Source: Nitrospinae bacterium AH_259_B05_G02_I21
GTDB lineage: Bacteria; JADFOP01
Length of the DNA: 64,000 bases
Direction of reading: 5' to 3'
NCBI GenBank assembly: GCA_027717595.1
Contig: JALLOF010000002.1
Span: 29,324-93,323 of the forward strand
The notes beneath the pieces were generated by a model. The model was not told the origin of the DNA. It saw nothing but the letters and a program-made list of their open reading frames with translations, and ran no database searches. Shown in pieces: positions 53,464 to 54,654 of the stretch (position 1 is its first letter; the number at the start of each line of letters is the position of its first letter). A program made the position numbers and the translations under genes.

Positions 53464-53586
53464 AGCCGCATAGAGAAGAACCGCAAGAGGCTCGGTACGC
53501 CCAAAGACGGTTGAGCATGTGAAGGGAGAGCGGGCTTGTGGGGTTAGGCGCCTTCCGCCCACGCCTGAACGGCTCGCACAACCCGG

Positions 53587-54654
53587 TCAACTTCCTCTTC
53601 CGTGAGCTCCGGGAACATGGGAAGGCTCAACACCTCGCGGGCTGCCCGATCGCTTTCCGGGAAGGCCCTTTCCATGTAGCCCCCCCCCTGCAAAAGCCTC
53701 CTGGGCCGGGAGCGACACGGGATAGTGTATTGCCGCTCCGATGCCCTGGTCGGCCAGATGGCGCTTCAGGTCGTCGCGTCGGGCCGCCCCGATGGTGTAC
53801 TGATGGTATACGTGATGGGACCCCGGGGCCTCCGTCGGGCACACCACGCCTGAGACCTTCTCGAGGCCAGCCGTGTAGGCTGCGGCGTGGCGACGGCGAG
53901 CATCGTTCCACCCCTCCAGGTGAGGGAGCTTGACCCGAAGGACGGCGGCCTGGAGAGTGTCCAGGCGGCTATTGTATCCCACCACCCTGTGCAGATAGCG
54001 CTCGGACGCCCCGTGAACGCGAAGCTGGCGGACCAGCTCGGCCAGGGCCGCATCGTCCGTGACCACCATCCCCCCGTCGCCGTAGGCCCCGAGGTTCTTC
54101 GTCGGAAAGAAGCTGAAACAACCGACATCCCCCAAAGATCCGACGACGCGCCCCTGGGAGCGGGCACCGAAGGCCTGTGCGGCATCCTCGATGACGGCCA
54201 AGCCGTGTCGAGCCGCCAGCGCGCTAATCGCCTCCATGGGGGCAGGATGGCCGAACAGGTGGACGGGAATAATGGCTTTGGTCCTCGAGGTGACGGCCGC
54301 TGCCGCCGCACCGGGGTCTAGGGCGTAAGCCTGCGGGTCAACATCCACAAAGACGGGCATGGCGCCACAGTAGATGACAACCTCCGCCGTTGCGATGAAA
54401 GTGAAGGCGGGCACGAGGACTTCATCGCCCGGACCGACGCCGAGAGCCAGCAGGGCCAAGTGGAGGGCGTCCGTGCCTGAGGCCACCCCGACGGCGTGGC
54501 TGGCTCCGCAAAAGGCGGCGACCTCCTCCTCCAGGGCCTCTACCTCGCGGCCCAAGACGAACTGGCCGCTCTCGATGACCCGTCGGATGGCTTCATCCAT
54601 CGCCTCGCGCAAGAAGGCGTATTGGCGCGTCAGGTCGAAAACCGGGATGGACAT
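53587..54654 (-). CDS. DegT/DnrJ/EryC1/StrS-family PLP-dependent sugar aminotransferase; 3' end frameshifted at a G9 homopolymer
   Basis: MSIPVFDL...SGQFVLGREVEALE...GTDALHLAL...FSFFPTKNLGAYGDGG...HYPVSLPAQEAF. After the G9 tract (53680..53688) the frame gives a non-homologous tail. The alternative frame encodes the conserved ...[45 protein letters not shown] ending at 53544. Confidence 0.8.
   Translation of the reverse strand: MSIPVFDLTRQYAFLREAMDEAIRRVIESGQFVLGREVEALEEEVAAFCGASHAVGVASGTDALHLALLALGVGPGDEVLVPAFTFIATAEVVIYCGAMPVFVDVDPQAYALDPGAAAAAVTSRTKAIIPVHLFGHPAPMEAISALAARHGLAVIEDAAQAFGARSQGRVVGSLGDVGCFSFFPTKNLGAYGDGGMVVTDDAALAELVRQLRVHGASERYLHRVVGYNSRLDTLQAAVLRVKLPHLEGWNDARRRHAAAYTAGLEKVSGVVCPTEAPGSHHVYHQYTIGAARRDDLKRHLADQGIGAAIHYPVSLPAQEAFAGGGLHGKGLPGKRSGSPRGVEPSHVPGAHGRGS

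Follow-up and report, generated by a model that had tools for sequence, protein, structure and literature searches.

In Nitrospinae bacterium AH_259_B05_G02_I21, the reading frame of a gene assigned to the DegT family of sugar aminotransferases breaks at a run of nine G residues (G9) close to its 3′ end. The gene lies in the 64-kb stretch of DNA analyzed here as a whole (the window), which is part of a 104,786-bp contig from a co-assembly of three single amplified genomes (SAGs). We lean toward the view that G9 is a real and incidental slippage mutation at a tract that owes its existence to sequence composition, and that the gene is a null allele or a young pseudogene.

According to this scenario, a poly-G run of ancestral origin, which specifies the loop residues Gly323-Gly325 of the C-terminal domain, would have gained one base (G8 to G9) through slipped-strand mispairing at replication in a clonal population at the Atlantis Massif. 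The +1 change would shift the frame after Gly325, so that 30 unrelated residues replace the last 44, which are predicted to form a helix, a β strand, and the terminal helix. The enzyme would most probably be lost, and with it an amino-sugar branch that would supply the neighboring GT2/PMT_2 genes for polyprenyl-phosphate glycosylation. The tract would remain prone to slippage and be reversible in principle, as a by-product of the GGG-rich glycine usage of the lineage rather than an evolved contingency switch.

The frame break and the ancestry of the tract

The tract is located on the minus strand at 53680..53688 (C9 on the plus strand) and corresponds to nucleotides 967-975 of the gene, i.e., to codons 323-325 (Gly-Gly-Gly) of the aminotransferase. 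Read along the coding strand (53688..53680), G9 stands in the context CAG GAG GCT TTT GCA GGG GGG GGG CTA CAT GGA. The frame that starts with the ATG at 54654 (MSIPVFDL) passes through the tract and ends with a stop at 53587-53589 (53587..54654, minus strand). Its 355-amino acid product consists of 325 native residues and 30 out-of-frame ones (LHGKGLPGKRSGSPRGVEPSHVPGAHGRGS). The match of this frame to the Pfam model PF01041 (DegT_DnrJ_EryC1) scored 390.8 bits against a cut-off of 19.8, covered model positions 5-318 of 360, and ended at residue 322, while model positions 323-360 were matched (29.8 bits) by the next frame, in a 49-amino acid open reading frame (ORF) ending at 53544. The break in homology thus falls inside the tract. 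In the G8 frame, the displaced 3′ end of the gene (53544..53679, minus strand) encodes residues 326-369, with a stop at 53544-53546.

The whole PF01041 domain (positions 1-360) does not lie in one frame in the sequence as it stands and was recovered only after in silico repair of G9 to G8. When the tract was edited in this way to other lengths, G8 or G11 restored a protein of 369 or 370 amino acids, and G7 or G10 led into the third frame. The tract is an intragenic homopolymer of at least 7 nt whose changes in length toggle the frame (G8 and G11 in, G7, G9, and G10 out), which are the properties looked for in a simple sequence repeat (SSR) locus. A census of the window revealed two 9-nt homopolymers only, both C9 on the plus strand, at 9687..9695 and 53680..53688. 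Since a first-order Markov model predicts ~2.8 G/C runs of 9 nt or longer per window, a 9-mer by itself is statistically unremarkable here; chance is ruled out as the reason why the tract coincides exactly with the homology break. A scan of positions 53300-55000 for promoters and terminators yielded nothing relevant to the tract. The initial annotation of this DNA had placed a G9/C9 run exactly where a DegT-family frame departs from homology, had read the next frame as the conserved C terminus ending at 53544, and had counted the run among only two 9-nt homopolymers in the window; all of this was confirmed, as was its claim that one G fewer gives a full-length enzyme, which at G8 is 369 residues long and aligns from end to end with orthologs and with solved structures.

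The score against the hidden Markov model and the pyridoxal phosphate (PLP)–binding lysine motif identify the gene as a member of the DegT/DnrJ/EryC1/StrS aminotransferase family. This motif, SFFPTK(186)NL, is intact and is invariant across an 18-sequence alignment (A1). The G8-repaired protein aligned from end to end with 17 database homologs, the closest of which are 95 to 97% identical, and its residues 3-362 aligned with solved DegT-family structures (7b0d, E = 1e-114; ArnB 1mdo, 1e-55; also QdtB and WbpE). In an AlphaFold model (mean confidence, pLDDT, of 86.5), Gly323-325 are located at the end of a short helix, where the chain enters a loop. The 44 residues missing from the G9 product comprise, in the same model, a helix (332-340), a strand (341-344, the SLP motif), and the terminal helix (352-368), and a protein deprived of them is most probably enzymatically inactive. 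More distant homologs have YLGY, EGEGY, or similar residues at the position of the tract, which suggests that the triple glycine is a lineage-specific loop sequence and no catalytic motif. The repaired protein scored below the cut-offs of all NCBIfam equivalog models (PseC, 259.5 versus 423.5; ArnB, 246.5 versus 631; WecE, 223.7 versus 375), and its substrate is therefore left unassigned.

Orthologs with DNA sequence are available from independent metagenome assemblies of four close relatives, namely two scaffolds from the ENA (L001 and L084) and the assemblies GCA_032840095.1 (L082) and GCA_044231025.1 (L083). Their genes share 95 to 97% of amino acids and 96 to 97% of nucleotides with the repaired gene of the window. 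All four read GCA GGG GGG GGC TAC, i.e., an in-frame G8, with flanks identical to those of the window, whose tract has exactly one G more than that of its nearest relatives. A fifth ortholog, L094, is more diverged (81% amino acid, 84% nucleotide, and 73% third-position identity) and reads TCG GGG GGG GGC, an in-frame G9. The uninterrupted run in all five orthologs indicates that the tract is ancestral to the ortholog group. A short tail like that of the window gene was shared by none of them.

Further copies of the locus were sought in larger collections. A pattern consisting of the exact flanks and a variable tract (CAGGAGGCTTTTGCA-N5-14-CTACATGGA) had no match in JGI metagenome contigs. A degenerate codon pattern returned, in a metagenome scan, only four distant DegT genes, which carry the usual YLGY motif and lack the tract, and a protein-based scan of genome contigs gave, among the matches listed, only relatives of 58% identity or less. 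The exact 355-, 399-, and repaired 369-amino acid proteins were absent from the protein collection, so that no deposited G8 version of the strain was present there.

Recurrence of G9 in a second single cell

The SAGs originate from the Atlantis Massif, where core 69A-4R1 of International Ocean Discovery Program (IODP) 357 sampled foraminiferal carbonate sand at the interface between sediment and basement (PMC8406227). For comparison, we used cell AH-259-F20 (GCA_027717765.1), which came from the same plate and from a different well than the three co-assembled cells and was sorted, amplified, and assembled separately. Over the 55,028 nt that could be compared (loci L085-L089), its sequence differs from the window by no mismatch and by a single one-base indel. 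Contig JALLOI010000038.1 of this cell corresponds to positions 45254..55005 of the window with 100% identity over 9,752 nt and carries the same C9 in the DegT gene. An artefact might have been expected to disappear from an independent assembly; instead, G9 recurs in AH-259-F20, the independence being that of different wells on one plate. The inspection of alternative assemblies for heterogeneity in tract length, which the initial annotation had advised, thus revealed none at the DegT gene. The annotation of JALLOI010000038.1 has no protein at the position of the aminotransferase. In the co-assembly, there are only two protein accessions between GalE and the GT2 gene, enough just for the two PMT_2 genes located there. 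Both annotations thus appear to treat the aminotransferase as a pseudogene. The possibility that the window itself consists of concatenated contigs, considered since AH-259-F20 contigs end at 45254, 55005, and 57710, was rejected: ORFs and the synteny with L082 and L084 are seamless at these points, and the window matches the 104,786-bp contig.

The single indel between the two assemblies is located in the other 9-mer, a sister poly-G tract on the minus strand (9687..9695) whose 13-nt context, AGGGGGGGGGCTA, is identical to that of the DegT tract. At this tract, the window has G9 and AH-259-F20 has G8. Either its length varies from cell to cell or the workflow sizes G8 and G9 unreliably, and the disagreement cuts both ways. 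The tract lies in what is left of a gene for a Zn-ribbon class I methyltransferase (9464-9900, minus strand), a truncated 5′ portion that retains only the Zn ribbon and methyltransferase motif I and aligns with the N-terminal 128 residues of full-length paralogs. Both tracts would encode Gly-Gly-Gly-Tyr. The sister tract is in frame only as G10 or G7, in which case the product ends at 145 amino acids; G8 and G9 are both out of frame. The initial annotation had noted that both 9-mers lie at frame breaks in glycan-modification genes. The frame breaks are there, but the two cases are not alike, as the sister tract requires a change of +1 or −2 and lies in an already truncated remnant.

We consider it likely that G9 at the DegT gene is a real allele and infer that it was present in the DNA of the cells rather than made during amplification or sequencing. 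We give an appreciable, if minor, probability to an artefact, in which the cells hold G8 and the extra G arose in both assemblies from phi29-type slippage in whole-genome amplification, from library polymerase chain reaction, from Illumina sequencing, or from the SPAdes consensus. The workflow (WGA-X amplification, NextSeq 2x150 sequencing, SPAdes 3.0 with --sc --careful) has a published benchmark of 3.0 indels and 5 mismatches per 100 kb. At this rate, about two indel errors per 64-kb window would be unsurprising and would probably fall at long homopolymers, which keeps an artefact in consideration; the window contains exactly two frame breaks, at its two longest homopolymers, and the SAGs were originally low-coverage partial assemblies. 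However, the +1 recurs in assemblies of separately sorted cells, and with no mismatch and only one indel between these over 55 kb, their actual random error is much lower than the benchmark. The assemblies also agree at the A8 (16065-16072), the C8, and all 6- and 7-mers, and all homopolymers of 6 to 8 nt in the window, including an in-frame G8 at 33561-33568, are located inside intact ORFs or in intergenic DNA. Slippage during amplification usually deletes bases, and WGA-X reads have slightly more deletions. In all four Illumina metagenome assemblies of the close relatives, this tract is resolved as an in-frame G8. The C-T-A downstream of the run is kept, which argues for a true insertion, whereas a base-calling error would substitute a base.

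Several observations weigh against the view of G9 as a real, incidental loss-of-function mutation. The disagreement between AH-259-F20 and the co-assembly at 9687..9695 may mean that the WGA-X/NextSeq/SPAdes workflow missizes G8-G9 runs, and its benchmark permits ~3 indels per 100 kb. Both sets of SAGs were obtained from one 384-well plate through one workflow, which makes cross-talk possible, as well as a systematic error specific to the context AG9CTA that the two tracts share. Tract length is known from the assembly consensus and not from reads. Loss of function in the G9 allele is read from a predicted structure, and the non-enrichment of G-runs reported below was established in one 64-kb window, with low power.

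G-run statistics and the question of a switch

The initial annotation had offered a choice between an assembly error and an ON/OFF switch. The former is made less likely by G9 in AH-259-F20; the latter is so far no more than a mechanistic possibility; a real incidental slippage mutation, the reading that we prefer, was omitted from the choice. We regard as unlikely an evolved contingency locus, i.e., a selected phase-variation switch in which an envelope amino-sugar modification is ON at G8 and OFF at G9 or G7, with the sampled cells caught in the OFF state. The run has been kept uninterrupted down to 84% nucleotide and 73% third-position identity and is even lengthened by the TCG codon in L094, ON and OFF lengths both occur among populations, and the gene lies within a large surface-glycan region, as would be expected of such a switch; there is also a direct precedent in Campylobacter jejuni cj1437c (see below). 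However, retention of the two synonymous G's carries no statistical weight, because GGG accounts for ~35% of glycine codons in these ortholog genes. Both assemblies (two to four cells) have G9, so that the clonal population shows no tract-length polymorphism at the aminotransferase and no ON (G8) allele; G8 and G9 are found between populations. The tract is located 87% along the gene. Variation of the sister tract between cells that are identical in all other compared positions would favor a switch, but in the remnant of a dead gene such variation can have no adaptive value.

The frequency of G-runs can be accounted for by codon usage. When synonymous codons were shuffled in the 48 ORFs of the window, 1.14 coding-strand G-runs of 8 nt or longer were expected and 2 were observed (P = 0.33); over-representation of G-tracts relative to codon usage was thus not found within the 64-kb window, a sample of little power. 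In the same analysis, coding-strand C-runs were depleted (10 observed and 19.5 expected at 6 nt or longer, P = 0.002; 1 and 5.8 at 7 nt or longer, P = 0.015), and G-runs were not. All plus-strand runs of at least 7 nt are C since most genes of the window are on the minus strand. In the relatives, a G8 lies inside the essential gene dnaE, which encodes the DNA polymerase III α subunit (positions 785-792 in L082 and 760-767 in L084), another point that does not favor a switch. A C-run upstream of galE varies in length, being C7 in the window (52364-52370) and in L001 and C8 in L084. Together, the dnaE and galE cases indicate that poly-G/C tracts of this lineage also occur outside glycan genes and vary between populations. 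Given these results, we infer that the tract is not under selection for switching.

Another in-frame G8 (L087 11034-11041) was observed in AH-259-F20, 29 nt beyond position 1 of the window, in a 345-codon gene that adjoins a NeuB-like gene. A second DegT-family aminotransferase begins at L087 11876; the genome thus has at least one further DegT paralog, in a nonulosonic acid–like cluster. The wider proposal that the poly-G tracts of this slow-growing sub-seafloor lineage are true contingency loci, at which clone-mates differ in length, as they do at 9687, and so switch envelope glycans stochastically, this amino-sugar branch among them, perhaps under phage pressure, seems to us quite doubtful.

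It is highly improbable that the G9 gene is functional through recoding, with the full-length enzyme made by RNA polymerase slippage or by +1 ribosomal frameshifting at GGG-GGG-GGG-CUA. The RNA:DNA hybrid has roughly the length of a 9-nt homopolymer, and CUA directly follows the run. Slippage of the polymerase is known from A/T runs and is less efficient on G/C runs. The out-of-frame arrangement is not conserved, as all five orthologs are in frame at the DNA level, and recoding was rejected as the main explanation for this reason. No stimulatory element turned up, although no search aimed at one was made.

Glycan genes around the aminotransferase and comparison with known systems

The convergent neighbor of the aminotransferase is the gene for UDP-glucose 4-epimerase, GalE (52429..53463, plus strand; 344 amino acids; NCBIfam equivalog score of 396 bits versus a cut-off of 262). 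Because no further gene follows the aminotransferase on the same strand, its frameshift has no polar effect. Divergent from it are two paralogous genes for PMT_2 (GT39/ArnT-like) membrane glycosyltransferases (54895..59710, plus strand), followed by a gene for a GT2 polyprenyl-phosphate glycosyltransferase–like protein (59807-60493). The relatives L082 and L084 have the same synteny but a single PMT_2 copy. The PMT_2 pair and the GT2 gene probably represent the pathway in which the amino-sugar product of the aminotransferase is used. Together, GalE, the GT2 protein, three PMT_2/ArnT-like paralogs, and a flippase-like protein suggest a polyprenyl-phosphate–linked route of periplasmic glycosylation.

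The three PMT_2/ArnT-like paralogs of the window (43092-45560, 54895-57363, and 57454-59710) are diverged, with 72 to 83% nucleotide identity, and the last two stand in tandem. The short-read contigs of AH-259-F20 break exactly at these paralogs (55005 and 57710). A split PMT_2 gene in L001 was considered as another homopolymer slip and rejected, since the split is a scaffold gap of N's. Residues 573-627 of the first paralog (44808-44972) match the full length of the Ribosomal_L30 model (PF00327, 42.1 bits versus a cut-off of 23, model positions 1-51 of 51) and the NCBIfam rpmD model (49.8 bits versus 44.65); the match of the paralog at 54895-57363 is weaker. A large membrane glycosyltransferase is an odd setting for an L30-fold domain. 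Between the first two paralogs, the 3′ end of the flippase-like (LPG_synthase_TM) gene is present twice, as a 298-nt direct repeat (45695-45992 and 51093-51390; 90% identity; spacing of 5,398 nt) that flanks a segment encoding HNH, PD-(D/E)XK, and helix-turn-helix proteins. The segment looks like an island inserted into the flippase-like gene with partial duplication of the target.

If G9 is real, one amino-sugar step in a large envelope-glycan region has been lost from this population or can be toggled in it. A change in poly-G length is the sole difference seen over 55 kb between two clonal single cells, which would offer a modest but tangible case of homopolymer slippage as the fastest-evolving class of sites in a subsurface bacterium. 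Were the poly-G tracts contingency loci after all, single-cell genomes would show that SSR phase variation is not confined to host-adapted pathogens and also occurs in an energy-limited bacterium of the subsurface. For annotation, the gene should be marked as frameshifted at a slippage-prone tract and not silently repaired, and in SAG assemblies no positions deserve less trust than G8-G9 tracts.

Frameshifts at homopolymers are well known from glycan genes, and the present one points to no new mechanism. Like the homopolymer indel errors of SAG assemblies, the frame break described here falls at the longest class of homopolymers; unlike them, it recurs in the assembly of a second cell, and no other homopolymer breaks an intact gene. 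With ArnB, PseC, and WecE, fold-type I PLP enzymes of family PF01041, the repaired protein shares the Pfam match, the PLP-binding lysine, and the structural alignment, and its GT2 and PMT_2/ArnT-like neighbors resemble the logic of the Arn system. In contrast to these enzymes, it lies below every equivalog cut-off, and no ArnA-like formyltransferase/decarboxylase was identified next to it.

Poly-G and poly-C phase variation in Neisseria (lgt and pgl) and Helicobacter pylori (fut) relies on slipped-strand mispairing, which shifts the frame of a glycan-modification enzyme. The elementary mechanism proposed here, mispairing in a coding homopolymer of a glycan enzyme, is the same. Those species are pathogens that have adapted to their hosts and face immune selection, and they have been shown to switch reversibly at high frequency, whereas the bacterium studied here is an uncultured, sub-seafloor, Nitrospinota-affiliated organism known from assemblies alone. 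Mechanistically, the tract behaves like an SSR phase-variation site, and it is at most a candidate member of that class.

The closest parallel is cj1437c of C. jejuni NCTC11168, an aminotransferase gene of the capsule locus that is 1,101 bp long, contains G9 at +876, is one of 28 assayed phase-variable loci, and varies in tract length among outbreak isolates. We take its product to be a member of the DegT family. C. jejuni differs in being AT-rich, with ~29 G/C tracts that are strongly unexpected and lie clustered in contingency genes; in the window, G-runs occur at the rate set by codon usage. Switching was measured experimentally in C. jejuni, whereas no ON/OFF mixture was shown at the locus described here, and the positions of the tracts in the proteins are not homologous (about codon 292 versus codon 323). 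The two cases nevertheless share an aminotransferase gene of ~1.1 kb in a surface-glycan locus, an intragenic G9 toward the 3′ end (+876 of 1,101 bp in C. jejuni and +967 of 1,110 bp here), a frame that is toggled by one-base changes, and a tract length that differs among related isolates.

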